This document shows, in pieces, positions 1 to 43,319 of a stretch of 64,000 bases of DNA (position 1 is its first letter; each line of letters begins with the position of its first letter). This DNA is from Candidatus Doudnabacteria bacterium (GTDB lineage: Bacteria > Patescibacteriota > Doudnabacteria > UBA920). The stretch covers positions 48,222 to 112,221 of the forward strand of contig JAEUSF010000001.1 in assembly GCA_016788665.1 (NCBI GenBank). Direction: 5' to 3'. The translations under genes and the position numbers were made by a program. The notes under the pieces are model-generated. The model had not been told where the DNA came from. It saw only the letters and a list, made by a program, of their open reading frames with translations, and ran no database searches.

Positions 1-1055
1 ATAATATTTTTGCTTTTTAAGGTTTTAGATAAGGTAAATAGAATAAAAAAAGTAAAACTTATGAGACCCGTTAGTCCTGTTTCCGTCCAAAAATTTAAAA
101 AAATATTATGAGGATAGTTGTGGGGTGGAAGAGTTTTGTCAGAAATTAAGTTGTTATATTCTTTTGCATAGCCGCCTAACCCTAAGCCGAATATTGGAGA
201 GCTTTTAATTGCTTTAATTCCGCTTTGCCATAGAGTTATGCGTGAAGAAGCAGACTTTTCCCCAGTAAAAGGAGAGAAGAGTTTTGTTTTTATGCTGGGA
301 GTGGCTAGGGCTATAATTATACCAATTGTTATGACTATAGCTGCGGTTTGGCGGATTTTTTTGTCTCCGGTCCATATGGCATAAAATGTAAGAGCGCCTA
401 CTATTCCTAACCAGCCTGCGCGGGAAAATGAAAATATGAGCCCCGTAATTCCAAAGAGCCAGGCTAGTATTTTTAAATTTGGGAAAGTTCGCGTCTTTGT
501 GCTTAATAATAAATCAGGTATTAAAAGCGCTAAGAGCGGAGCAATAAAAAGTGCGTAAAAATTAGGATGTAGAAAAAAGCTAACCGATCTTTTTAATTCA
601 ATGTCGTTGCCTTGAAAAAGAATTGGCAAGCCAAAGTTTGTAAAGTATTGGAAAATTGCGTACATACCGCATACAGAGACTGTAAAATATATTAAATTTA
701 TAAGTTTTTGTTTTTTTAAATTGTCGGTGAAAATATATTTTCCTATAACAAATAAAGAGACTGGTTGAACAAAAAGCACAAAAAATTGACCTAGGTTTTT
801 TATAGGCTCTCCTTGTACAAAAAGCGAGATTAGTCCAGAAAGCAAAAAAAGACCCACAAAAAAGTTTTCACGAAACAGTTTTTTTACAAACTGAAAAAAC
901 AAACCCAAGGCGTTCTGTTTTAAAAGCTGCAAAAAAAACATTAGCCAGACTGCTAAAACTCCCAGCATTAAAAAGTTGCCAGGAATGCCGAGCAAATTTA
1001 TTTTTATGAAATAAAGTGGTGAGATAAGCAGGCTAAGTAGAAATATATATAGCAT
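1..1055 (-). CDS. O-antigen ligase (Wzy_C)-like polytopic membrane protein, 3' end truncated by window start
   Basis: Not in the ORF track. Manual minus-strand translation from ATG at 1053-1055 (MLYIFLLSLLISPLYFIKINLLGIPGN...FSFSRAGWLG...HPHNIFLNFWTETGLTG...) runs without stop to position 1. It is hydrophobic, with SRAGW and H.HN...E.G motifs typical of Wzy_C/WaaL-family ligases. Confidence 0.5.
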   Translation of the reverse strand, partial: MLYIFLLSLLISPLYFIKINLLGIPGNFLMLGVLAVWLMFFLQLLKQNALGLFFQFVKKLFRENFFVGLFLLSGLISLFVQGEPIKNLGQFFVLFVQPVSLFVIGKYIFTDNLKKQKLINLIYFTVSVCGMYAIFQYFTNFGLPILFQGNDIELKRSVSFFLHPNFYALFIAPLLALLIPDLLLSTKTRTFPNLKILAWLFGITGLIFSFSRAGWLGIVGALTFYAIWTGDKKIRQTAAIVITIGIIIALATPSIKTKLFSPFTGEKSASSRITLWQSGIKAIKSSPIFGLGLGGYAKEYNNLISDKTLPPHNYPHNIFLNFWTETGLTGLISFTFFILFTLSKTLKSKNI

Positions 1056-1056
1056 A

Positions 1057-3651
1057 CTAAAAATTGTTGCCTGGAATTTCGTAATTTAGAATAATACTGG
1101 TATCAGCGGAATTGCCTGTTACGTCCACCGCTTTGGCTGCTATTGTGTGTTTGCCGTTTCCATAGTTATCTGGCAAATCAAAAATATATGGAATGGAATT
1201 TATGCTCTTTATAAAATTGCCGTCCACCGAAATATCTATTCTGGCAATGTTATTTTCTCCAGTTGCTGCTATTTCTATTCGGACTGGCAGGCTGAAGACC
1301 GAAGAGTTATCTTCGGGTGAGTTTATACTTATAGCGGGTGGATTGCCTATATTTGTTGGGGTTGTTGAACCGTTCAGTGAGGCAGGGTAACCAAAGCCAT
1401 TTTTTAAGGCCCAGCCATTTACTGCATTTTCCCAATTTTGATTTTTTGGATTCTCGCTTTTATAAACTAAGTATGTGCGGTAGATTATTTGATTAGGGGG
1501 TGTTAGAGGTGTGGCTGGCTGCCCGGTAAAAGAATCTATCTCGACCGCTTTATGTACGTCGTCGTATTCAGTAGGGATACTGTAGCTGGCAAAAATTTCT
1601 GTCTTTGTAGTTGGAGTAAGTTGAGTTGGAAGTTTGCCCGAAACACTGTCAACAACAATTTCTTGAATACCCGAAGGTCTTTCAAATCGTTCGACAGGAG
1701 TGTCTTTTAGGGCGTTGGTCATAAACTCTTTCCAGATTGGTGCGGCAACAATGACACCGTCAGCTCCCCTCTTCATAAGACATTTAGGGTTTTTACTTCC
1801 ACAATTATTTCCACTCCATACTCCTGCTGCCAATGACGGAGTAAATCCCATAGTCCAGCCGTCGTGCCAGTCGTTTGTGGTGCCGGTTTTAGCTGCTACG
1901 GGTCTTCCTGGTAGTGTTAGTGGTGAGTTGGAGCCGAATACGTAGCTCCGGGCATTGTTATCTGACATAATATCTGTCAGTTCATAAACTGCCTGTGGGT
2001 CTAAAACTTCTTGGGGCTTATTTTGAAATTCTTCGACTATTTGATTGCTTCTGTCTTGTATTTTTAGAATAAAAGTAGTGGCATTTTTTACGCCCTTGTT
2101 TGCCAAAGTTGCATATGCGCTTGTGTGGTCAACCAGTTTTACTTCGCATCCTCCCAATACCAACGAAAGGCCACAATTAGACAGGGGGCTGGTTATGCCA
2201 AGTTTTTTAGCTGTCTCTGTGGCATTATCTACTCCGACTAATGCCAGAGTTTTTACGGCAGGTATGTTTAAACTGCCTGCTAAGGCTTGTCTCATAGAGA
2301 TGGGTCCCCTTTCAGAACCATCGTAATTTTGAGGTATATAGTCTTTGTTATTAAACTTTCCGAAATTTGTTGTGACATCCATTAACATACTCGCTGGGGC
2401 ATATTTGTGTTCTTTGTCGAAAGCGGTTACATATACATATGGCTTAAAACTGGAACCAGGCTGTCTGGGGGCAGTGGCTACGTTGAATTGAGGTTCAAAC
2501 AGACAATTGTCACCAGATTTGCAGCTTTCTGGTGAAGATGTTCCAAAATAGTTTTTACTGCCCACCAGAGCCAAAATTTGGCCTGTCTTTGGTTCAATAG
2601 CAACCAAGCTGGAGTTGTTGGCGTTGTATTTTTTAGCGTTATTTTCTGCATACTTATTAACAGCATCCTCAGCGATTTTTTGTAATTTTGGGTCTAGTGT
2701 CGTGTACACTTTTAAACCACCTTCTTGCAAGGTTTTCTCACCAAACTTTTCAGCCAAATAGTCTTCCACCATAAAGACAAAATGAGGCGCGGTTATAGAA
2801 GTTCTTATGTTGCTAAAAGCCACCTTTTCTTCCTTGGCTTGTTTTTCCTGTTCCTGGCTTATGTAACCATCTTCCCGCATTCGCTGCAAAATGTAATTTT
2901 TTCTACCATCTAAAGTTGTTCTGTTGGGGCCGAATGGGTTGTAGCGGCTAGGAGATTGTGGTAAGGCTGCAAGATAAGCTGCCTCTGCTAAGCTTAAGTC
3001 TTTGGCGTGTTTTCCAAAATATCCTTGGCTGGCTGCTTCGGCTCCGTAAGTGTTTTTTCCGTAGGGAATTTCGTTAAGGTACATTTGCAATATTTCATCT
3101 TTTGTAAACCTGGTTTCCATAGCCACGCTTAAAATAACCTCTCTAGGTTTTCTGTCCCATGCGCTGTAGTTTATTAAAATTGCATTTTTTACCAGCTGTT
3201 GTGTTATGGTGCTGCCCCCTCCCCCACTCCTGTCCAAATTCACGGCCAGTCTGAAAACCGCCCTGCCTATTCCTGTGAAAGAAATGCCATGATGTTTATA
3301 GAAATCTTTATCTTCTATGGCAATAGTGGCCTTTTTCAAGTACTCGGAAATTTCTTCAGATGGCACCAGAGTTCTTTTTACTTCGCCGTGTATTTCGTAT
3401 AGCAAGGAGTTGTCGCGAGCATAAATCTTTGTGCTTTCGGCAACTTGTCTTTCTACTAGTTTGCCCGGGTCAGGTAGGTCTTTAGAGTAATATAAAAACA
3501 GTACGGCGAACAAAAATATTCCAACCGCTGCAGTTCTAAAAAACCAAAGTGCTAAAGTTTTTATATTCCACTTAAAACTTCGTCCTTTGGATTTTTTAAA
3601 TTTTATTTTTTTCCCAGCCTTGTCTTTGCTCTCAAAGCTATATATCCGCAT
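1057..3651 (-). CDS. mrcA: class A penicillin-binding protein (bifunctional glycosyltransferase GT51 / transpeptidase), PBP1A-like
   Basis: N-terminal TM, GT51 motifs (GGSTITQQLVKN, RKxxE), transpeptidase SSFKP (SxxK) and KTGTT motifs, C-terminal extension. Confidence 0.85.
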   Translation of the reverse strand: MRIYSFESKDKAGKKIKFKKSKGRSFKWNIKTLALWFFRTAAVGIFLFAVLFLYYSKDLPDPGKLVERQVAESTKIYARDNSLLYEIHGEVKRTLVPSEEISEYLKKATIAIEDKDFYKHHGISFTGIGRAVFRLAVNLDRSGGGGSTITQQLVKNAILINYSAWDRKPREVILSVAMETRFTKDEILQMYLNEIPYGKNTYGAEAASQGYFGKHAKDLSLAEAAYLAALPQSPSRYNPFGPNRTTLDGRKNYILQRMREDGYISQEQEKQAKEEKVAFSNIRTSITAPHFVFMVEDYLAEKFGEKTLQEGGLKVYTTLDPKLQKIAEDAVNKYAENNAKKYNANNSSLVAIEPKTGQILALVGSKNYFGTSSPESCKSGDNCLFEPQFNVATAPRQPGSSFKPYVYVTAFDKEHKYAPASMLMDVTTNFGKFNNKDYIPQNYDGSERGPISMRQALAGSLNIPAVKTLALVGVDNATETAKKLGITSPLSNCGLSLVLGGCEVKLVDHTSAYATLANKGVKNATTFILKIQDRSNQIVEEFQNKPQEVLDPQAVYELTDIMSDNNARSYVFGSNSPLTLPGRPVAAKTGTTNDWHDGWTMGFTPSLAAGVWSGNNCGSKNPKCLMKRGADGVIVAAPIWKEFMTNALKDTPVERFERPSGIQEIVVDSVSGKLPTQLTPTTKTEIFASYSIPTEYDDVHKAVEIDSFTGQPATPLTPPNQIIYRTYLVYKSENPKNQNWENAVNGWALKNGFGYPASLNGSTTPTNIGNPPAISINSPEDNSSVFSLPVRIEIAATGENNIARIDISVDGNFIKSINSIPYIFDLPDNYGNGKHTIAAKAVDVTGNSADTSIILNYEIPGNNF

Positions 3652-3708
3652 GGCTTAATTATAGAGTATTATGTATAATGTATCTAGTATAATGTAAAGT
3701 GCATATTT

Positions 3709-10160: not shown

Positions 10161-10320
10161 CCTACTACGCACCAGGCTTCGTAGGGCGAGCCTTATGCAA
10201 CAGGTTGTATTTAGTTAACCGCTTGTCCTCCGAAGCTTTACGCGAAGGAGGAAGCTACACGCCCATTGATAGATATTATAGTCGATGTATTACAAAGCAT
10301 CAAGTGTGTGTCTGTAAATA

Positions 10321-18415: not shown

Positions 18416-18552
18416 ATATATTTACTTAGTCCTGCTTCGCATGAAGCTACGTAGGACACTTCTTCGTTTGCGATATTTAAGTATTATCGAAAAAGAACCA
18501 TATGAATAGCAATGCTTGCACTTCATAGTTCCTTTTGGAAGGAACGAAGAAG

Positions 18553-18627
18553 TGGAGGTGCAGATGGGAATCGAACCCATGCATTGCGGTTTTGCAGACC
18601 GCCGCGTTACCACTTCGCCACTGCACC
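18553..18627 (-). tRNA. tRNA-Cys, anticodon GCA, CCA encoded
   Basis: GGTGCAG...GCGGT-CTGCAAA-ACCGC...ATGGG-TTCGATT-CCCAT-CTGCACC-T-CCA. Confidence 0.85.
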
Positions 18628-18632
18628 GAAAT

Positions 18633-18878
18633 TTATGTATCTATATATTTTATTTTTAACAATTCTTTTTGCTGTCCGCTTTTATAAAACTTTTCCTTTT
18701 TCATGGCTTCGCTTCTGGTCAGACAAGTTTCATAACTCAATAGTTTCCATGGTCTGTAACCTTTGGTGGATTTAACTCTGCCTTTGTTATGCTGAGTATA
18801 CCTTAGTTGAACATTTTCGCATGATCCAATATAGACGTCGCCATTCTGAAGGCTTTTAAGAAAGTATACGTAATACAT
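18633..18878 (-). CDS. small GIY-YIG nuclease family protein (YhbQ/UPF0213-like)
   Basis: MYYVYFLKSLQNGDVYIGSCENVQLRYTQHNKGRVKSTKGYRPWKLLSYE...EAMKKEKFYKS carries the GIY...YIG...R...E...N motifs. The ORF-track version (to 18980) reads through a tRNA-Cys fragment; I prefer the internal ATG at 18876-18878, preceded by TATAAT. Confidence 0.7.
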   Translation of the reverse strand: MYYVYFLKSLQNGDVYIGSCENVQLRYTQHNKGRVKSTKGYRPWKLLSYETCLTRSEAMKKEKFYKSGQQKELLKIKYIDT

Positions 18879-18936
18879 AGAAACATTATACTTTTGTAGG
18901 TTTTGTCCCCCTACGGGGGATCTGCCGTAGGCATGA

Positions 18937-18974
18937 CAGACCGCCGCGTTACCACTTCGCCACTGCACCGAAAT
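18937..18974 (-). repeat. exact 38-bp duplicate of tRNA-Cys 5' end (5 nt upstream + nt 1-33), followed by a GC hairpin
   Basis: 18937-18974 is identical to 18595-18632. After the break in the anticodon loop comes TCATGCCTACGGCAGATCCCCCGTAGGGGGA, then 7 more tRNA-matching nt (CAAAACC). Confidence 0.8.
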
Positions 18975-19021
18975 GTACAATGAGGTAATTTTACTTCATT
19001 TGAATTTTTTTTTCAATACTA

Positions 19022-19746: not shown

Positions 19747-20118
19747 TCTTATATCAGACTCCTTTCTTCCCTCTTGCTTTGAGTAAACAAAACAAGGTTG
19801 ATTATTTAAGGAACATTAGGTCCAGTAATGGACCAACCCAAACCATTCGACACGATTATTTATATAAAAGCAATATGGTCTGGGTAAATAAAAAAGTGCA
19901 GGTAGCACTTTCTTAATGTAAGTATACGCTTTTTAGCGCTTTTTTTCAAGCCCTTTTTGTCTATTTTTAGCTTAAATAAGCGAAAATACATTTATTTAGT
20001 TTTAAAAACAGCCAAAATCAGCCCTCTTATATAAGCCAAAATCTGACTAAGTTTAGAAAGGGAGAATTGTGTTCAGATAGTGTTAAATACCTTTACTTAA
20101 GCCAAAAGGCAAGGCGGA

Positions 20119-20769
20119 CTACAAAATTTTTATGTCAATTTCCCCATAGCTTTTAACAACTATATCGGCGTTTGCAATTTTTTGGGTTTCGAATGTGGTT
20201 CCAAGCCCCACGCAAAACATGTTTGCGCGTTTTGCTGCCTCTATACCTCTTGGTGAGTCCTCTATTACCACACATTCTTCTGGAAGCGAGCCCGTTTCTT
20301 TGGCGGCAAAGAGAAAAATAGCCGGGTCTGGTTTAGATTTGTTTTCTACTTTTGATATGCCAAATACCTTATTTTCAAAAAGTTTAAAGAGGCCAAGCTT
20401 TTGGTCTATCATTTTAAGAAAATCGTCGTTCGATGAGGTAGCTATGCAGGTTTTAAAACCCAGTTCCTTAATTTGTCTGTAAAAGTCTAAGAAACCGGGT
20501 ATAAACCCGATATTGTTTTGAAAGCTTTGGTCGAGGAGGCTTTTTCTTTCTCCATACAAAGTTTCTAGGTCCCCTGTAAAATTATATTTTTCTTTTAGAA
20601 CTCTAGTACCTTCTTTAATTTCTCTGCCCACCAGCAAGTCTTTTATTTCCTCTAACTTATAGGCAGTCCCGTGTCGCTTTAGAAATTCAAAATCTGCTTT
20701 CATGTAGACTTTTTCGGTGTCTACAACCACCCCGTCCATATCAAAAATTATTGTTGTATATTTTGGCAT
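20119..20769 (-). CDS. HAD-IA family hydrolase (beta-phosphoglucomutase-like phosphatase)
   Basis: Motif I IIFDMDGVVVDT; motifs II-IV (S/T, K, DD) present. Confidence 0.75.
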   Translation of the reverse strand: MPKYTTIIFDMDGVVVDTEKVYMKADFEFLKRHGTAYKLEEIKDLLVGREIKEGTRVLKEKYNFTGDLETLYGERKSLLDQSFQNNIGFIPGFLDFYRQIKELGFKTCIATSSNDDFLKMIDQKLGLFKLFENKVFGISKVENKSKPDPAIFLFAAKETGSLPEECVVIEDSPRGIEAAKRANMFCVGLGTTFETQKIANADIVVKSYGEIDIKIL

Positions 20770-20881
20770 AAAAATAGTTTAGCAGAAGCTGGTAAAACAA
20801 AAAAACTCCCATTGTTAGTTTTTAGTCCGCTTTATTCTTTGTCTATAATTAATGAGATTTAATTGAATAATAAATTATTTA

Positions 20882-21376
20882 TTATTTTTGAATTTTAAAG
20901 GAAGCAGCGCTTTGCCCCGCAGTTATTATATTATTACCGTTTGCGGAATATAATTGTATGCCTAATTTATAATCTCCGGGTTTTACGGAGTGGGTTTGCC
21001 AATTGGAACAGACTAAAAGCCCGTCCCACTTGAAGCTGGTTTTCGAATTTGCCAATGCTGTTGCGTCGCCACCTTTACTGCAGTCTGAATTGTTGGTTAT
21101 GCTGCCTAAAGCTTCCTCGCCGTTAGACGAAAGGAGTCTAAGATAAATTGTCGCATTCGTAGGAGGGTTTAACACGCTCCAAGACAGTGGTATATCAGCG
21201 CCCTCTCCTTGGGTAAATATTGAACCGCTTGGTAATACATTAGAAATCATGGCTTCAGGAGTTGTGGACGCGTTTTGGTTGACTATAGATTGTTTTTGAG
21301 TTTGTTGGGTCAAGCCGCACCCTGCTCCTAACACAGCAATTATAGAAAGAAAAAATAATAATTTTTTTATAAACAT
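20882..21376 (-). CDS. putative lipoprotein / secreted protein
   Basis: Preferred start MFIKKLLFFLSIIAVLGAGCGLTQ has a signal peptide and lipobox-like LGAGC; the ORF-track N-terminal extension to 21493 is unlikely. Confidence 0.5.
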   Translation of the reverse strand: MFIKKLLFFLSIIAVLGAGCGLTQQTQKQSIVNQNASTTPEAMISNVLPSGSIFTQGEGADIPLSWSVLNPPTNATIYLRLLSSNGEEALGSITNNSDCSKGGDATALANSKTSFKWDGLLVCSNWQTHSVKPGDYKLGIQLYSANGNNIITAGQSAASFKIQK

Positions 21377-21671
21377 GAGTATGTGGTTATATGACCTAAA
21401 CTTTACGACATTGAAAGTATAACAAAAAACTTTTGGTAGTAACAGGTGTTTTGAAAATAGCAAACTCCGCGTCCGGAAGGTTGTTGGCCGCACTAAATTT
21501 GTGGAAATAAATTACCAAGCAAGCTTGGGACCACTTTCGTTTGATTCCTCTTTCACGCCATAAACTAAAAGAAATCGCCCCACCCATAAAGGGTGAGGCG
21601 TTTTCTTTTGGAGCTGCCTAGTTAAGGATGTTAGAACTATGGTTATGGGAAACAGTAAGTCCTTAGAGGTG

Positions 21672-23948
21672 TTAAAATTTTTCTTTTAAAGAATAAAACA
21701 TGTCATCAATTTGTTTGTACTCGGAAGAATCAGTACTCGACGAAGTTCTATAGTCTTCTGGGTCTATATCCACATATTTTTCATTTTCTAGCTCATGTAC
21801 CTTATGCTCTAGCTGTTTTTCAATTTCTTTAATATCAACTTCTAACTCCTCGCTTATTTCTCTAAAATCAGTTTTTAAATCCTCGTAGGAGCCTTCAGAA
21901 ACGTAATCAATTTCGTTTTCTAGTATATCATTTATTGAACTTTTTATTTCATCAGACAATTTAATTTTTTTATATTCCTCGGGAAAAATTTCCGCAAATT
22001 TAATAAAATATTTTACATCCTCAATTGACTCCATCGTTTTAGAAAAGAAATCGACAATGCCAGTTTTATCAAATTTGGTGAAAGGAGCAATTATTTCTAG
22101 TATATCAATATAAAAATTTTTATCTTCCCCTTTAATTTTATTATATTCAATATGTCCAAATATTTTAAAAACAAAATTCTGCCATTCCAAATCTTCGTTT
22201 AAACTCAAATTATTGATTGCTAATTTGAGTTTATATAAAATACTCGTCGACCTCCTAGCCCAATAATAAATAGCGTCAGCGCTAAAAGAATGTACAGTTC
22301 TTATCAAATGAGAGATTTTAAAATCAGAAAGTCCATTTTTTATATTTTCTTTAATTGTTTTAACTTGTTTTTTGCTTAGGATTATTTTTTCATTGCTCTC
22401 TTCATTAACCGAAAAAACTGTAAAAAATTGATTCAAAAAAATAACGTTCGTGATTAGGTCGTCAACTAAATCGGAATCTCTTTTTAGGTAATTTAGCAAA
22501 AAATCTTTGATTGAAGGATTTTGGAAGTCAATATATATTTGACCTCTTCCATCTCTTTTTGAAGATATGAATGTATTTTCAAGCTCCTTAATAGAGTCTT
22601 TTAATGAAAAGGAGTTAAAAGTAAAATTGTATTTTTTTGAATATTTTTGGGCAAATTTTATAAATGCTTCCTTTAAATCTTCAAATAACGCTGGGCCTCC
22701 CATAGAAAGCAAAACCATTAGTAAGCATTTGGAAAAATTAGTAATTTGCTTTTCATAACTGTGTTTCCATATCAATTCAGGGTTGTCTAGGTAATTAATA
22801 AATTTGTCAAAAAATTTTAAAGGCTTTATATTTTCCCAAATGCTAGGATTTGTAATAGTTTCAATTATCCTAGGATTATAATTGGGATGGTTAATAATAC
22901 CCATATAGTTTTTGTCCTCAAGGATGTTTTCTATATAGGGCTTGCTTATGTTTGAAAAATATAGATGATTGTATAAAATTCTTGACTTAACAAGTTTATT
23001 ATATTTTGATAAATCCAAAATACATTTTGCCAATTGAAGATTTTTATTATCTAGGCGTTCATAATTTACCAGGGCTTGATTTAAAATATATTCTCTTGTA
23101 GTCAGAATTAAGATTTTATTTTTAGATTTATTAACCAAGTCAATAAATTTAATTATTCTTTCATCCTCGTTGTTAGATATTTTATTTTCTAAAAAATTAG
23201 TTCCCAAAAAATCATCAAAAAGAAAAATTTGTTTTCTTTCAGGATTTAGAGCCTTGTATCCCTCCCCAATGTTATCAGATAAGTACACAAAATCTTCAAA
23301 GTCATTAGCCAAAAAATGATATACCAGTATTCTAGCCAATGTCGTTTTGCCTATACCTGGTATTCCCGATATTATTACGTACTTTTTTTTACTTAAGATT
23401 TCGAGAGCTTCGTTATAACTATCGTTCTCAACATACACTTTAATATTCTCTTTAATTGATTCTTCCTCGAAACTCGATTGATTGTATACTTTACTTTGTA
23501 CCAACTTTTCAAGAATAGAAGTACTAGATAACCATAACTTGAAATGTCTTTTTTCTACATCGGGGAATTTTCCGAGTAAATTATTTAAATCGCTTCTGCT
23601 GAAGATGTCATTAGGAGAAATGATTATAGGCTTACATAAATCAAAAATAGTTTGTTTTTGTTTTCGTGATAAAGGTGAGGATGTTGTTAGTATATATCTT
23701 TTTGGTTTAAGTTTAATCGCTTTTCCGGCCTCTTTTTTTATATTTGAAATTAAGGAATTATAATTTTCGTATCTTTTACACTGCACAATAATTGTTTCCT
23801 CTTTGTCTTGATAGCAACGTAAATCAATTCCACCATCTCGACCAGCAATAAAACTTTCCAGACGAATATTAAGGAATTTTTGAAGCAAGTCCCTAGACAG
23901 AACCTCAAATTCAATCGACGATAAATTTAAAAAATTATAAATATCCAT
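21672..23948 (-). CDS. Avs-like antiviral STAND protein: N-terminal Mrr-like PD-(D/E)xK nuclease + STAND (NB-ARC-type) NTPase + helical C-terminal domain
   Basis: Residues about 10-70: FEVLSRDLL...GRDGGIDLR...IIVQCKRY (Mrr_cat-like, D...QxK). Walker A VIISGIPGIGKTTLARIL, Walker B KQIFLFDDFLG, then ILILTTREYIL (NB-ARC/STAND TTR motif). About 430 aa helical C-terminus. 3-nt gap to the upstream OLD gene. Confidence 0.8.
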   Translation of the reverse strand: MDIYNFLNLSSIEFEVLSRDLLQKFLNIRLESFIAGRDGGIDLRCYQDKEETIIVQCKRYENYNSLISNIKKEAGKAIKLKPKRYILTTSSPLSRKQKQTIFDLCKPIIISPNDIFSRSDLNNLLGKFPDVEKRHFKLWLSSTSILEKLVQSKVYNQSSFEEESIKENIKVYVENDSYNEALEILSKKKYVIISGIPGIGKTTLARILVYHFLANDFEDFVYLSDNIGEGYKALNPERKQIFLFDDFLGTNFLENKISNNEDERIIKFIDLVNKSKNKILILTTREYILNQALVNYERLDNKNLQLAKCILDLSKYNKLVKSRILYNHLYFSNISKPYIENILEDKNYMGIINHPNYNPRIIETITNPSIWENIKPLKFFDKFINYLDNPELIWKHSYEKQITNFSKCLLMVLLSMGGPALFEDLKEAFIKFAQKYSKKYNFTFNSFSLKDSIKELENTFISSKRDGRGQIYIDFQNPSIKDFLLNYLKRDSDLVDDLITNVIFLNQFFTVFSVNEESNEKIILSKKQVKTIKENIKNGLSDFKISHLIRTVHSFSADAIYYWARRSTSILYKLKLAINNLSLNEDLEWQNFVFKIFGHIEYNKIKGEDKNFYIDILEIIAPFTKFDKTGIVDFFSKTMESIEDVKYFIKFAEIFPEEYKKIKLSDEIKSSINDILENEIDYVSEGSYEDLKTDFREISEELEVDIKEIEKQLEHKVHELENEKYVDIDPEDYRTSSSTDSSEYKQIDDMFYSLKEKF

Positions 23949-23951
23949 AAA

Positions 23952-25913
23952 TTAAAGAGACTGGAATAAAGTAGTTATAACGCTAGGTATGTTTTGTTTG
24001 TCTTTAATTACAGATTTTATTAATTTGCCACTTTTTTCTCCCTTACTTGGCAGGCAGGCTTTTTTCTCTTTATTACTATCAAGATAAACTTTGTCACTTA
24101 GTAGCTTGTAAAACTTATGTTCTCTATCATTCTTTAAATCTTTTCTAATTTCTCTAAAAACACTCTCGTCATAATTAAGACCGCAACACTCTTTTAAAAC
24201 TTCAATCCAAACGCTGTCGTCTATGGAATCTTCTAAGTCATAAGTCCCAATCAAAGTAATATTTTTAGCGGATAAAGCTGAATCAGAGTCAAGCAGGTAA
24301 TAAACATGTTCTTCGCTTTTTTGAAAGTTTTTTAAAAGCTCTTCAAACATAGTTTTATTTTTTTTACATTCATCTTTCCCCCCTAGATTAATAAGTTGAA
24401 TTGAATCCTGCATTAGTGTTCTTCCAAAATACAACTCATAAAAATAAGGTATTAAAATTTCTTCGGTGGGTCCTTCTACACACAAAAATTTATCGTAAAA
24501 TAAGAAGTCGCTACTTTTAACTTTTAATGAGTTTAGGACATCTTCAACATTAGAGCATTCTAAAATTTCAGAATAACCATCTTTCAAAGTAAAACGTTTT
24601 ATATTTTTAATGTTCAGTCTGTCAACAAAAATTGTCGAATGAGTGCTAACAAAAACTTGATAATAACTTTGAGATAATTTTTTTAAAATATTATATAAAT
24701 CTCTTTGAGCAGCAGGGTATAGATGAATTTCTGGTTCATCAAAACACCATAGAAATTTTTTTCTAATATCTTCAGTCGTTATTTTTTGTAAACTTGCCCA
24801 TTTAATAAATGCAAACCAAATCTGTTTTTTTACTCCCTCTCCTTGTGACTCCAGTCTTATATCACCATCACTACTAGTTTTATTTATCATAATATCTGAA
24901 ACATTTTCCTCAATATTAAAACTAACTGCTGCTTTTATGGCAGTAATATTTGGGAGTTCTTCAAAAAGATTGCCGGCTTTCCCTGCAAGTTCTTGATTTA
25001 CTTCTTGTGTAACGGTTTCACTGAGTTCCTTTGCACTTGTTTGCAGCGTATTTTTATATCCTTCTATTTTTGAAGCCATTGAATCAGCCGCAAGTTTTTC
25101 GACATCTTTTAGAGTTACGTTCCAGTCAATATAACGACAAACTGGGAAAAACCCCTTATCTTTTTTTACAAAATCTTTGTGCTCAGCCCAGCTTAGCTCC
25201 ACATCACTTTTACTATAAATTGCCCTAATCAATTCAATGTTTTTAAATCTCCCTTTTTTATTTTCGTTTACAACTTCATCATTTGAAATATCCAATTCAC
25301 CCTTTTTATCTTTTAAAAAAGTTTGATTTTGACTCCAAAGCTGTAATGGATTCGATTTTGTTTCTTTAAGGCAAACAAAATATTTACCCGAGGAATTTTC
25401 CTTTGTAAATTGCTTGAGTATATATAGTTTATTTTCGGTTAAACTTTCTATGCTCCACTTAAGTATGTTAGTCGAGCTTTCGACAAAATCTTCACTAATA
25501 TCTTTTTCTTCAATTTTAAACTCCCCGATTATTGTCGTTGTGTTTTCAGTAAAATTAAAGATGGGTAAATTTAACTTTTCAAAGATTGAGTTATAATCTA
25601 ACTCGCTTATGCCCGTGTTTGAAATATCTGAAGTTAATTGGCCTTCTTTCGCAATATGAAAAGTACTATCCGTTTCTAATAGTAAACAAATGGCTTTTAA
25701 AAAAACAGATTTTCCAGCATCATTTATGCCAATGAAAACATTTGGAATATCCGGCTGTAAATCGACTATGACGTTTTTACAACTTTTGTAATTTATAATA
25801 GCCAAACGTTCTAAAATCATATTGATATTTTTTATTAAAGGCACCGCTGAATCAATTATAGGCTTAATTTTGCGAACAAACAAGTATAAATTTGTACAAT
25901 TTTTTAAGAACAT
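23952..25913 (-). CDS. OLD-family (overcoming lysogenization defect) nuclease: ABC/AAA_15-type ATPase + Toprim
   Basis: Walker A FIGINDAGKSVFLKAI; long coiled insertion; Walker B/D-loop LWCFDEPEIHLYPAAQ; Toprim glutamate FLCVEGPTEEILIP and DxD YLLDSDS. A probable true start is the internal ATG at 25818-25820 (MILERLAIINYK...). Confidence 0.85.
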   Translation of the reverse strand: MFLKNCTNLYLFVRKIKPIIDSAVPLIKNINMILERLAIINYKSCKNVIVDLQPDIPNVFIGINDAGKSVFLKAICLLLETDSTFHIAKEGQLTSDISNTGISELDYNSIFEKLNLPIFNFTENTTTIIGEFKIEEKDISEDFVESSTNILKWSIESLTENKLYILKQFTKENSSGKYFVCLKETKSNPLQLWSQNQTFLKDKKGELDISNDEVVNENKKGRFKNIELIRAIYSKSDVELSWAEHKDFVKKDKGFFPVCRYIDWNVTLKDVEKLAADSMASKIEGYKNTLQTSAKELSETVTQEVNQELAGKAGNLFEELPNITAIKAAVSFNIEENVSDIMINKTSSDGDIRLESQGEGVKKQIWFAFIKWASLQKITTEDIRKKFLWCFDEPEIHLYPAAQRDLYNILKKLSQSYYQVFVSTHSTIFVDRLNIKNIKRFTLKDGYSEILECSNVEDVLNSLKVKSSDFLFYDKFLCVEGPTEEILIPYFYELYFGRTLMQDSIQLINLGGKDECKKNKTMFEELLKNFQKSEEHVYYLLDSDSALSAKNITLIGTYDLEDSIDDSVWIEVLKECCGLNYDESVFREIRKDLKNDREHKFYKLLSDKVYLDSNKEKKACLPSKGEKSGKLIKSVIKDKQNIPSVITTLFQSL

Positions 25914-25953
25914 CGTAGTATAAATTTGATTATTTGATTAACTAATCAAGCTA

Positions 25954-26148
25954 ATGCAACACGGCGGACAAAGACCAAATTCGGGTCGTCCCAAAGGTAG
26001 TAAATCGAAAAATACCCTAGAGCGTGAAGCCCTAAGGCAATTTATATTTGACGAGGTTAAACGGAACCAAAAGAAAATTGTCGCTGCGTTAATCCGCCAA
26101 GCCACAAAAGGGCAAAGAAAAGGTGTCAGGTACAATTTTAGCAAATGA
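25954..26148 (+). CDS. small basic DNA-binding-like protein with phage terminase-small-subunit-type N-terminal motif
   Basis: MQHGGQRPNSGRPKGSKSKNT... (GRPKGS motif common in phage TerS/HTH proteins). Divergent from the OLD-STAND operon across an inverted-repeat operator. Confidence 0.4.
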   Translation: MQHGGQRPNSGRPKGSKSKNTLEREALRQFIFDEVKRNQKKIVAALIRQATKGQRKGVRYNFSK

Positions 26149-26209
26149 CCTTTCGGCTTCGCTCAGGCTCCAAAGAAAAAATTTCCAAAAAATGTGGAAG
26201 TTTTTTCTT

Positions 26210-26231
26210 TGGAGCGGCTAAGGGGAATCGA
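26210..26231 (-). repeat. 22-bp direct repeat of the tRNA-Gly 3' end (pseudo-tRNA fragment / att-like)
   Basis: tggagcggctaaggggaatcga is identical to 26418-26439. Confidence 0.8.
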
Positions 26232-26417
26232 CCCGCCCACGGTGGATTTTCAACTCCCTTTGGTTGTTTCAAATCTCACCTAACGCGGGCCCGTCACTAC
26301 CAAAAACTGCGCTCGCTCGCTTTTGGTTTCCGCCTTTGGCGGAACCGTTCCCGTTCGATTCCTCCAAGCCATTACAAACAAAAAATCCGATTACCGTAAA
26401 GGCAATCAGATTTTTTG

Positions 26418-26491
26418 TGGAGCGGCTAAGGGGAATCGAACCCCTATCCTCTCCATGGCAAGGAGAAGTTCTACCATTGAACCATAGCCGC
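26418..26491 (-). tRNA. tRNA-Gly, anticodon GCC
   Basis: GCGGCTA...TCTCC-TTGCCAT-GGAGA...GGGGG-TTCGATT-CCCCT-TAGCCGC-T-CCA. Confidence 0.85.
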
Positions 26492-26536: not shown

Positions 26537-26611
26537 TGGTGCCGCGGGTCAGGATCGAACTGACGACACGACGCTCTTCAGGCGTCTGCTCTACCACTGA
26601 GCTACCGCGGC
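26537..26611 (-). tRNA. tRNA-Phe, anticodon GAA
   Basis: GCCGCGG-TA-GCTC-AGTGGTA-GAGC...GACGC-CTGAAGA-GCGTC...GTCAG-TTCGATC-CTGAC-CCGCGGC-A-CCA. Confidence 0.85.
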
Positions 26612-26614
26612 TTG

Positions 26615-26847
26615 TTTAACTTGTTTTTTAAAAGCCTTCTTCCAGCTGCTGTTTTTAAATACAATTCTCTTTTTCTAGCTTCGTCGAATGTATTAAGTTC
26701 TTCAGTATAAACTATTTTAATATTTTCCATTCTTGAAGTGGTTTAAGTATGTCCGTATTTGTGTTCTTTAAGACGTCTTTCCAGATCCTTAGTCATTCCT
26801 TTGTATAGCTTACCATCTTTATCTCTCAATACATATACAGTATACAT
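26615..26847 (-). pseudogene. frameshifted GIY-YIG nuclease gene (second copy of the tRNA-associated cassette)
   Basis: Minus strand from ATG 26845-26847: MYTVYVLRDKDGKLYKGMTKDLERRLKEHKYGHT then stop. Shifted frames continue ..KPLQEWKILK.. and ..VYTEELNTFDEARKRELYLKTAAGRRLLKNKLNK, the same family as 18633-18878. Confidence 0.65.
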
Positions 26848-26862
26848 AGTTATATAGGTATT

Positions 26863-26929
26863 GGCGTCTGCTCCCCGCCCGACTGAACGGCTTCAGTCGT
26901 TCGGGCGGGTACCACTGAGCTACCGCGGC
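26863..26929 (-). repeat. truncated tRNA-Phe 5' duplicate (nt 1-20 + 37-bp GC hairpin + nt 21-31)
   Basis: 26910-26929 equals tRNA-Phe 5' end (taccactgagctaccgcggc). Hairpin cccgcccgactgaacggcttcagtcgttcgggcggg; then ggcgtctgctc matches the next 11 tRNA nt. Confidence 0.75.
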
Positions 26930-27072
26930 TCGTTTGGATTACTATGAGCCCGCACTACGCCTTGATTACATCTAGGCTTCGGCGCGCAGCCTTCGCAATA
27001 ATACAACTTTCGATAAATCTTCAAACTTGGTTTACGCTTTTTGGCGTAAGCCAGCCGAAGCTTTAGCGAAGG

Positions 27073-27149
27073 CTGGTGGGCAATAAAGGATTCGAACCTT
27101 TGGCCTTCTCGGTGTAAACGAGACGCTCTAACCAACTGAGCTAATTGCC
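27073..27149 (-). tRNA. tRNA-Val, anticodon UAC
   Basis: GGGCAAT...TCTCG-TTTACAC-CGAGA...AAAGG-TTCGAAT-CCTTT-ATTGCCC-A-CCA. Confidence 0.85.
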
Positions 27150-27341
27150 CGTAATAATTTCAATGCCTCAGAGACGAGACTTGTATAAGCAGATTTAATT
27201 TTATGACGCTTGTCCGCTATAGCCACTTAAGCGACAGCGGCGGAAGCTAATTGCCCTAAGTTTATATACTAAATGTTTTTTAAGCCACAAATCTTTTTTC
27301 GCCTGCTGTAATTAGCGTAAAAAACTTGCCCAAATACTATA

Positions 27342-39829: not shown

Positions 39830-39903
39830 TGGTGGACTCACCGGGAATCGAACCCGGGCCTCAGCAATGCGAATGCCGTGTAATACCACTTTACTATGAG
39901 CCC
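39830..39903 (-). tRNA. tRNA-Ala, anticodon CGC (G3:U70 present)
   Basis: GGGCTCA...CGGCA-TTCGCAT-TGCTG...CCGGG-TTCGATT-CCCGG-TGAGTCC-A-CCA. Confidence 0.85.
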
Positions 39904-42834: not shown

Positions 42835-43015
42835 GCCTTTCAGCCTTCGTAGCCGGTAATTAGATTTAAGTTTTATCGTTTTGTTTTGCATTACTTACAA
42901 CATAAGCATTTAAACCAAGTTTGCTTCGACTAAGTGGGCGCTAAAGCTTTTGGCTGGCTTGCGCCAAATGCGGAAGCTTGAGTAAAAGGTTTGTCGAAGG
43001 TTGTTTTGTAAAAAA

Positions 43016-43089: not shown

Positions 43090-43319
43090 GACTTCGCTGA
43101 AGCTACGTCTGGCCTTTGGCCAGCAAGCAATCCTAAAAGATTTATCGAAGCTTGGTTGGGTAACTAACGAAGTCTGTGTCCACCGAAGCCCCGCCAGGGC
43201 GGGGCGTAGGCGGACTATTCAATGTGGATCAAAAGTTTTTAGAAAGCTAATATTGGTGAGTGTTAGAACCCCCTAAAAGGGGGTTTTAATATGCTTCAAT
43301 ATAATGTTAAAATTAACCT

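Follow-up and report, generated by a model that had tools for sequence, protein, structure and literature searches.

The known GIY-YIG homing enzymes, I-TevI and the Seg proteins, require an extra DNA-binding domain for site choice. SegB is a free-standing GIY-YIG homing endonuclease encoded in the T4 tRNA gene cluster (PMC2330249). Here we describe a GIY-YIG cassette at the tRNA-Cys gene of a Candidatus Doudnabacteria bacterium, located in a stretch of 64,000 nucleotides (GenBank assembly GCA_016788665.1, contig JAEUSF010000001.1, positions 48,222 to 112,221 of the forward strand) that is called the window throughout. The cassette consists of a partial 5' copy of tRNA-Cys that is interrupted by a hairpin insert, a GIY-YIG open reading frame (ORF), and an intact tRNA-Cys gene. 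Like SegB, the cassette gene lies between or beside tRNA genes and outside introns, and both genes are thought to spread by breakage of a gene-less allele followed by repair copying with co-conversion of the flanks. In contrast, the Seg proteins have ~200 amino acids or more and carry DNA-binding domains, whereas the cassette protein has ~80 amino acids and is limited to the catalytic domain. SegB is also intergenic; its neighboring tRNA gene is neither split nor duplicated, and hairpin modules are absent. The cassette shares with free-standing homing genes an ORF outside an intron, presence/absence polymorphism, and mosaic flanks, but it encodes no separate recognition domain.

The top structure matches of the cassette protein are UPF0213/YhbQ and SLX1 (PMC1564403; PDB 1ywl, 1zg2, 6seh), which contain the same minimal domain, but SLX1 is a structure-specific repair nuclease with the partner SLX4 and extra domains. 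The 2006 survey of GIY-YIG proteins describes no tRNA-gene or mobility link for the YhbQ type (PMC1564403). A second point of comparison is the mitochondrial double-hairpin elements (DHEs; Paquin et al. 2000 as cited in PMC10085805; other hairpin repeats in PMC2800124). DHEs resemble the hairpin modules described here: both are short, GC-rich, two-hairpin elements of AT-rich genomes, seemingly mobile, present in both orientations and within RNA genes, and linked to small endonuclease ORFs that enter a gene with partial gene duplication. DHEs lie in intergenic and rRNA variable regions of organelles, whereas the modules here occupy fixed positions of tRNA copies beside a nuclease gene, in bacteria. 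A GIY-YIG ORF in Allomyces atp6 is reportedly inserted together with a duplicated gene end.

RAYTs belong to the HUH tyrosine transposases, and the associated REPs, which occur in hundreds of copies per genome, have no particular connection with tRNA genes. The REP/RAYT systems and the cassette both combine a single protein gene with short palindromic repeats arranged as inverted doublets, but the cassette protein is GIY-YIG rather than HUH (Y1) and its modules are not dispersed. Integrative elements that target tRNA genes likewise leave a partial tRNA copy while the working gene is kept, and, as a looser parallel, a tRNA-Thr 5' fragment lies beside a 1.8-kb recombinase element in the archaeon Caldiarchaeum (PMC3293823). 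These elements encode recombinases, are kilobases long, and in bacteria restore the 3' end, whereas the cassette is ~350-500 bp, encodes only a nuclease, and carries a 5' copy (both halves in relatives) and hairpin modules. Group I introns of tRNA anticodon loops, among them those of Patescibacteria (PMC13011429), share entry at the anticodon loop and an endonuclease ORF; the cassette differs from them in having no ribozyme, an interrupted copy that is unspliced, and a separate intact tRNA. The 2026 study of Patescibacteria tRNA introns mentions no GIY-YIG cassettes, hairpins, or duplications (PMC13011429). We found no report of a GIY-YIG gene joined to a tRNA gene and accompanied by tRNA fragments and hairpins in the searchable full-text literature, whose coverage excludes subscription literature.

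We consider it rather probable that the window feature represents a single copy from a family of tiny, selfish, homing-type cassettes that colonize tRNA genes. The family is widespread in ultra-small bacteria and Bacteroidota and apparently undescribed. Such a cassette combines a leftover tRNA 5' part still located behind the probable tRNA promoter, at least one conserved GC-rich hairpin module at fixed tRNA positions, an ~80-amino-acid ORF for a GIY-YIG nuclease that falls in the Slx1/UPF0213 branch and has only the catalytic domain, and an intact copy of the same tRNA that starts at or within the ORF end, so that the host keeps its tRNA.

All parts of the window cassette are on the minus strand. 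The intact tRNA-Cys(GCA) gene spans 18553-18627 (ARAGORN; Rfam, 71 bits). The GIY-YIG ORF (18633-18878; 81 amino acids, catalytic domain only) ends at a TAA stop codon, which is followed by 5 nt (ATTTC) and then by tRNA-Cys. The leftover 5' copy of tRNA-Cys (18937-18974, positions -5 to +33) is identical to the intact gene at 38/38 nt. This exact direct repeat (18595-18632 = 18937-18974; blastn E 8e-17) cannot be a product of chance. The leftover copy is broken between anticodon bases G34 and C35, where a 31-nt double-hairpin module, TCATGCCTACGGCAGA/TCCCCCGTAGGGGGA, is inserted (18906-18936; a slash marks the midpoint of a module or a point of insertion). The module folds as two short hairpins (DNA folding -8.3 kcal/mol, z -2.6). 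The copy then resumes with CAAAACC (18899-18905), which corresponds to tRNA-Cys bases 34-40 in linear count, and CAAAAC directly follows the module in nearly all relatives. A promoter-like TTGAAA-17-TAAAAT (18988-19016) is directly upstream of the leftover copy. It has 10/12 consensus matches and is the top-scoring site of the region; on this basis it is probably the original tRNA promoter, which would now drive the whole cassette. A TATAAT hexamer (18885-18890) lies 6 nt 5' of the ATG. It was rejected as an internal cassette promoter since no -35 element accompanies it and most relatives lack it; it might give rise to a leaderless transcript, but this role is doubtful.

The initial annotation of this DNA had listed the tRNA-Cys gene, the GIY-YIG ORF, the 38-nt 5' copy, the 31-nt insert, CAAAACC, and TATAAT, and each of them was recovered on the minus strand. 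Its ORF length of 82 amino acids is corrected to 81. The break that it placed in the anticodon loop maps between G34 and C35. The hairpin insert was correctly sized at 31 nt, but it contains two hairpins rather than one and is not incidental: it is a member of a module family with conserved, covarying hairpins and two-fold symmetry that occurs in at least 30 relatives.

The cassette ORF matches the Pfam GIY-YIG family PF01541 with E 1.6e-14 and 54.4 bits (cut-off 22.6), and a second ORF linked to tRNA-Phe in the window matches with E 1.4e-14. An alignment of 28 sequences that includes the window ORF shows that Y5, Y16, G18, R26, H30, and E62 are invariant. We take the invariant Tyr (GIY), Tyr (YIG), Arg, His, and Glu to have the catalytic roles assigned in I-TevI and UvrC. 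The closest solved structures are UPF0213 (1ywl and 1zg2, E 1e-9), followed by SLX1 (9e-6) and I-TevI (4e-4). The 81-amino-acid protein is a member of the GIY-YIG superfamily from the Slx1/UPF0213 branch that contains the catalytic domain only, and it is a predicted nuclease. Its sequence is 100% identical to an NCBI protein assigned to Candidatus Doudnabacteria.

Comparison of related Doudnabacteria identifies the cassette as an insertion. The syntenic locus has the order 230-aa gene, X, tRNA-Cys, tRNA-Leu, arginine decarboxylase (ADC). Locus L081 represents the empty state that the initial annotation had proposed to look for: it has the synteny RNHCP-Val-Phe-Gly...gene-Cys-Leu-ADC and an intact tRNA-Cys, with neither a GIY-YIG gene nor tRNA fragments. 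The tRNA-Val, tRNA-Phe, and tRNA-Gly genes of L081 lie within 265 nt, whereas the window has ~460 extra nt between tRNA-Val and tRNA-Phe. The window tRNA-Cys is of the sequence type typical of the lineage and is 89% identical to that of L081. Nucleotide divergence of the flanks was too high for the L081 comparison to give exact insertion boundaries.

Locus L165 is filled at the same position with a 71%-identical ORF. Upstream of the ORF are tRNA nt 1-33 and a module; downstream of the intact tRNA are 13 nt, a second module, and an entire 3' half. Joined together, the outer pieces of L165 are 75/75 identical to the tRNA-Cys of L081. The inner intact tRNA is only 76% identical to this resident tRNA-Cys but 96% identical to the cassette tRNA of the unrelated metagenome-assembled genome L051. 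These identities indicate that a nuclease gene together with its own tRNA-Cys sits inside a resident gene that was split between G34 and C35. The cassette is thus an insertion polymorphism at one syntenic locus, which exists in three states: empty in L081, filled with the resident tRNA-Cys split in L165, and filled in the form seen in the window.

The same split is present in L057, L044, L025, L031, and L012. The upstream 5' piece of each locus matches the downstream 3' piece through compensatory stem differences from the intact tRNA, located in the acceptor stem or the anticodon stem, and L025 contains nested generations. A downstream module-bearing 3' copy is found in at least 26 of 52 tRNA-Cys loci. 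Automated mapping of upstream and downstream halves was noisy, and the evidence was restricted to loci checked by eye. The origin of mosaic tRNA pieces switches at modules in L012, L013, L030, and L047. The Bacteroidota have tandem arrays and full-length tRNA copies disrupted by modules. In two of these arrays, L063 and L076 (about 2900-3700), the leftover piece, palindrome, and ORF occur at least twice, with an intact tRNA-Arg further downstream; this arrangement is consistent with unequal crossing-over between direct repeats.

These comparisons bear on the first interpretation of the locus as a small selfish or homing-type element. The same layout in more than 100 independent assemblies excludes an assembly artifact. 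The selfish reading is well supported by the empty L081 site, from the L165 gene split at G34/C35, and from copies, some of them decayed, at many tRNAs; the site-specific homing within it is a step that we infer. The idea that the element carries a replacement 5' half needs revision, since relatives such as L165 can bring a complete replacement tRNA.

The distribution of the ORF-tRNA arrangement was determined for two subfamilies. A scan of one genome per species with a single peptide pattern gave 343 relatives of the first subfamily, of which 80 loci were kept. The second (Phe-type) subfamily was collected by a metagenome scan that gave at least 477 loci, of which 80 were also kept; a protein search for this subfamily returned 312 proteins at E<=1e-5. 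A same-strand tRNA lies at -23 to +16 nt of the ORF end in 74/80 reference-genome loci, with a few up to +80. The ORFs of these loci often terminate at a TAG or TAA within the tRNA D-arm, and reading into the D-arm gives rise to C-terminal tails such as GLVAKW. The tRNA partners of the first subfamily are almost always Cys in Patescibacteria (two further loci of the Patescibacteria type adjoin tRNA-Ile) and Arg, Met, Asn, Lys, or Ser in Bacteroidota, where carriers include Mangrovibacterium, Maribellus, and Pedobacter. The second subfamily adjoins a same-strand tRNA (Ala, Thr, Lys, Phe, Ile, Val, Asp, Arg) in 70/80 metagenome loci. A 5' copy of the adjacent tRNA is present within 400 nt upstream in 55 of the 74 first-subfamily loci, and most of the remainder have a well-formed 5' half of another tRNA-Cys upstream. 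Linkage of the ORF to a tRNA with an upstream tRNA piece therefore extends over more than 140 loci, at least 15 tRNA species, and two phyla. The window finding is apparently the visible tip of a large, undescribed family. A phage vector was considered and rejected after viral contigs, scanned with the family alignment, yielded no relatives.

The hairpin modules are conserved as structures. The Patescibacteria tRNA-Cys module, located at G34/C35, has the form TC-NNNN-TNC-NNNN-GA / TC-NNNN-GNA-NNNN-GA. A covariation test was performed on 30 aligned modules of this type with 500 shuffles. The pair cells were 98.9% paired, and compensatory changes occurred in 6 of the 12 pairs. Double-sided changes were found in 64 cells compared to 24.4 +/- 2.9 in the shuffles, none of which (0/500) attained 64. 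No variation was seen in the outer TC..GA pairs or in the closing C-G pair. The second hairpin is the first type reverse-complemented, including the optional bulged base, so the module reads alike on both DNA strands with GA/TC at its center. This symmetry points to a role at the DNA level. Stems that vary by compensatory changes and are unrelated to the tRNA flanks led us to reject the idea that the hairpins are fold-back copies of the flanks. A guide-RNA model, with the 5' tRNA piece as guide and the hairpin as scaffold, found no support and was also rejected: the module has the same symmetry on either strand, and the 5' piece often derives from a tRNA other than its neighbor.

The other groups have modules of their own. 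The second-subfamily module, CCCGCCCG...CGGGCGGG, is 32-45 nt long, occurs in both orientations (37 versus 26), and lies upstream in 60/76 relatives. The Bacteroidota module is a 20-nt perfect palindrome, CCTGCCTGCCGGCAGGCAGG. Over all three groups, the modules are located at a small number of tRNA positions: 9/10 to 13/14, 20/21 or 21/22, 34/35 or 37/38, and the T-loop (GTTC/GATTC). The tRNA-Ala(GGC/CGC) cassettes L118, L136, and L158 have the module upstream of the ORF at 37/38, which is the canonical position of archaeal and eukaryotic tRNA introns. Full-length Bacteroidota tRNA-Arg copies carry CCTGCCTGCCGGCAGGCAGG in the D-loop (L074:3234-3328, L053:379-471, and L062 at ~3358-3500), and in L062 a palindrome is also in the T-loop. 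ARAGORN calls these palindrome-bearing copies tRNAs that contain an odd intron, a pitfall for annotation.

In the homing mechanism that we favor, the predicted nuclease would cut a tRNA gene at one of the loop positions in which modules occur, and the break would be repaired from the cassette-bearing copy. The flanking tRNA pieces (the 5' piece on the left; the intact tRNA or 3' half on the right) would serve as portable homology arms, which would allow homing into the same tRNA gene of any genome regardless of the flanking genes. Such arms would account for the spread over distant hosts and for the mosaic pieces. The host would survive because an intact tRNA is supplied, as in L165, or retained, as in the window. 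The captured tRNA promoter would transcribe the ORF and the tRNA together. We speculate that RNase P processing removes the stop codon of those ORFs that overlap the tRNA and thereby keeps nuclease levels low. The window form would most simply be a later state that arose by recombination or gene conversion of the leftover piece with the cassette tRNA, or by spread among conspecifics, since its 5' half is identical to the lineage-type tRNA, the identity extends 5 nt further upstream, and the 3' half is missing.

Several observations weigh against the homing mechanism. The 81-amino-acid protein has no separate DNA-binding or recognition domain (Pfam finds PF01541 alone), so sequence-specific homing by a catalytic domain is something we infer, and the cutting of tRNA genes by the GIY-YIG protein is a putative activity. 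The intact tRNA of the cassette has the anticodon loop of the presumed target, and the two window copies are identical over 38 nt; self-immunity is therefore unaccounted for. Solo modules occur in the D-arm and T-loop of dead copies with the same tRNA on both sides in both phyla; modules can thus move independently, which simple ORF homing does not account for. The tRNA bits beside the modules stop at variable points (nt 35-41 on the upstream side; nt 14-30..34 on the downstream side) and define no fixed target-site duplication or element end. A fixed target-site duplication was rejected on these variable piece ends, which do not fit a constant staggered cut. L027 and L033 consist of the ORF and a tRNA behind an ordinary promoter without an upstream tRNA piece. 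The missing recognition domain, the retained self-target, the solo modules, and the variable ends favor a variant in which hairpin or cruciform DNA is the target of the nuclease and the modules themselves are mobile.

A bolder proposal can be put forward only tentatively. The family may represent a new class of mobile element in which a structure-specific minimal GIY-YIG nuclease and palindromic modules inserting at the D-arm, 34/35, and the T-loop act as a tRNA-gene replacement drive. The nuclease gene, traveling together with a tRNA gene of its own, would then be able to eliminate the resident tRNA gene, which is often present in a single copy, and take its place, and the host would come to depend on the element.

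A module-centered system like REP/RAYT or the mitochondrial DHEs, in which the hairpin modules are the mobile units, is the main rival to homing, and we regard it as the less likely of the two. The Slx1-like nuclease would cut hairpin or cruciform DNA and move modules into loop positions of tRNA genes. Hits in a sole functional tRNA would be lethal, modules would build up in redundant copies only, and the ORF-tRNA unit would spread by creating redundant tRNA copies. The kinship of the protein to UPF0213 and the structure-specific nuclease SLX1 fits this scheme, as do the two-fold symmetry of the modules in DNA and the presence of the CCCGCCCG-type module in both orientations. Modules are nested in other modules in L002, L012, L034, and L035. 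The solo modules of dead copies, which include the anticodon loop as well as the D-arm and T-loop, are expected if modules move. The two modules of one locus are usually near-identical, and those of different loci differ. The mobile GC-rich double-hairpin elements of AT-rich mitochondrial genomes offer a precedent (PMC10085805, PMC2800124). The genomic distribution of the modules does not fit this scheme. TC-hairpin-GA matches in 440 kb of loci are not dispersed: 69/128 lie <=220 nt upstream of an ORF, and most others are directly downstream of the adjacent tRNA. The 64-kb window contains only two GC-rich TC-hairpin-GA motifs. The cassette also encodes no strand-transfer enzyme, and we know of no insertion mechanism for a nuclease-only system. 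The module-centered explanation overlaps homing by the ORF; the main difference is the recognition target of the nuclease, and both may be partly right.

A very improbable alternative is a domesticated host operon in which an ordinary host GIY-YIG protein is co-transcribed with the tRNA, and the tRNA piece and hairpins form a regulatory leader for processing or attenuation. In its favor are the linkage to tRNA-Cys, which is kept across many Patescibacteria classes, hairpin covariation of the kind seen in functional RNA, the position of the leader behind a promoter-like site, and L027 and L033, which have an ordinary promoter and no fragment. This explanation does not accommodate the empty syntenic locus L081, the occupation of at least 15 different tRNAs, the pseudogenized and ORF-less copies in the same genome, or the presence of foreign tRNA pieces and a foreign intact tRNA. 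The identical reading of the modules on both DNA strands would be needless for an RNA element. An Rfam scan of window 9.5-28.5 kb and of L165, L057, and L087 matched tRNAs only and no other Rfam family. A group I intron was rejected: there was no match at E<=0.1, and nothing resembling a 3' exon follows the ORF in the window except the complete tRNA. An integrase-type remnant or random local duplication, with the repeat as an att-site scar or slippage product beside an unrelated small ORF, has a negligible probability: tRNA genes are common integration sites and the window has a 22-nt copy of the tRNA-Gly 3' end 186 nt downstream of tRNA-Gly, but there is no integrase between the repeats, where the GIY-YIG gene is the sole ORF (barring mechanical frames that overlap the ORF or the tRNA), the repeat is the tRNA 5' half (-5 to +33) and not the 3' end, the unit is only ~350 bp, and >100 unrelated assemblies have the same architecture, in which the conserved module occupies an identical tRNA position.

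If the homing explanation is correct, an element of ~400 bp invades, and even replaces, essential conserved tRNA genes of streamlined bacteria. It would provide a route for horizontal tRNA-gene replacement and a source of tRNA fragments that confuse annotation. The abundant ~80-amino-acid "GIY-YIG nuclease family proteins" of Patescibacteria and Bacteroidota would gain a candidate function. The protein is possibly a new minimal nuclease type whose target is set by tRNA-gene structure or short hairpins, of interest for its mechanism and possibly as a tool. The family would be a bacterial counterpart to the unexplained mitochondrial DHEs, and homology arms that are derived from tRNA and therefore portable could explain spread across very distant hosts.

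The window contains a second cassette, at tRNA-Phe, and this recurrence of the architecture, asserted in the initial annotation, is borne out. All its parts are again on the minus strand. The tRNA-Phe 5' copy (26910-26935, positions -6 to +20) is 25/26 identical to the gene. A 36-nt hairpin module of the form CCCGCCCG..CGGGCGGG (26874-26909) interrupts the D-loop of the leftover copy at 20/21 and folds with -14.6 kcal/mol (DNA, z -5.3). The leftover copy resumes with tRNA-Phe nt 21-31 (26863-26873). The GIY-YIG ORF (26602-26847) is of the other subfamily, 31% identical to the Cys-linked ORF, and it is broken by an in-frame TAA. The frame enters the intact tRNA-Phe(GAA) gene (26537-26611; ARAGORN, Rfam) and is closed by a TAG made up of tRNA-Phe nt 8-10. 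At the position of the TAA (26743-26745), 23 intact relatives carry an ordinary variable residue (K, I, Q, V, E, or R), which argues that the Phe-linked ORF is a recent pseudogene and not a recoded gene.

Two ORF-less remnants, also on the minus strand, were identified. The one at tRNA-Ile(TAT) (10226-10264), noticed initially, consists of tRNA nt 1-12 (10253-10264) and a hairpin (10226-10252); the one at tRNA-Val(TAC) (27213-27256), initially missed, consists of tRNA nt 1-12 (27245-27256) and a hairpin (27213-27244). The Ile hairpin, TCCTCC..GGAGGA, is followed by CAAGCGG, and the Val hairpin, TCCGCC..GCGGA, by CAAGCG. The two remnants have the common junction GTAGCT/TCC.CC...GG.GGA/CAAGCG. 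The CAAGCGG segment is a D-loop of the tRNA-Cys type and not of the Ile or Val type.

Other tRNA pieces lie near these features. A 14-nt match to the 5' end of tRNA-Ala(CGC) (39830-39903) is found at 26939-26952, directly upstream of the Phe leftover and among GC-rich hairpins; this match suggests that cassettes carry bits of tRNAs invaded earlier. The exact 22-nt copy of the tRNA-Gly 3' end (nt 53-74) is at 26210-26231, and tRNA-Gly itself is on the minus strand at 26418-26491. Immediately before the copy stands ..GTGGGCGGG, which resembles a right module arm of the CCCGCCCG type at the T-loop position, and a TCCGCCAAAGGCGGA hairpin (26328-26344) lies between tRNA-Gly and the copy. The copy is probably a downstream 3' remnant of a like invasion at a fifth tRNA. 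The ~6.7 kb between tRNA-Gly and the 230-aa gene (19747-26417) has no counterpart in syntenic L081, where the two are ~300 nt apart. The ORFs of this stretch include one for a 653-amino-acid ATPase-like protein (23952-25913), a small ORF (25954-26148), and an HAD-like ORF (20119-20769). The stretch may be an island inserted beside tRNA-Gly.

Directly downstream of the window tRNA-Cys, a 12-nt perfect inverted repeat (18457-18468 / 18543-18554) surrounds 74 nt. The Cys-Leu spacer is 137 nt in the window compared to 51 nt at the empty site L081. The inverted repeat and the long spacer may represent what is left of a decayed downstream copy. A second GC-rich, partly palindromic repeat family is located around tRNAs at 27030-27073, 42835-42990, 43090-43215, 10161-10195, and 18424-18456. 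Examples are GCCTTCGCTAAAGCTTCGGCTGGCTTACGCCAAAAAGCG after tRNA-Val and the similar CTAAAGCTTTTGGCTGGCTTGCGCCAAATGCG between tRNA-Ala and tRNA-Pro. The core of this family, TTCGC(G)TAAAGCTTCGG, is also found inside the Ile hairpin.

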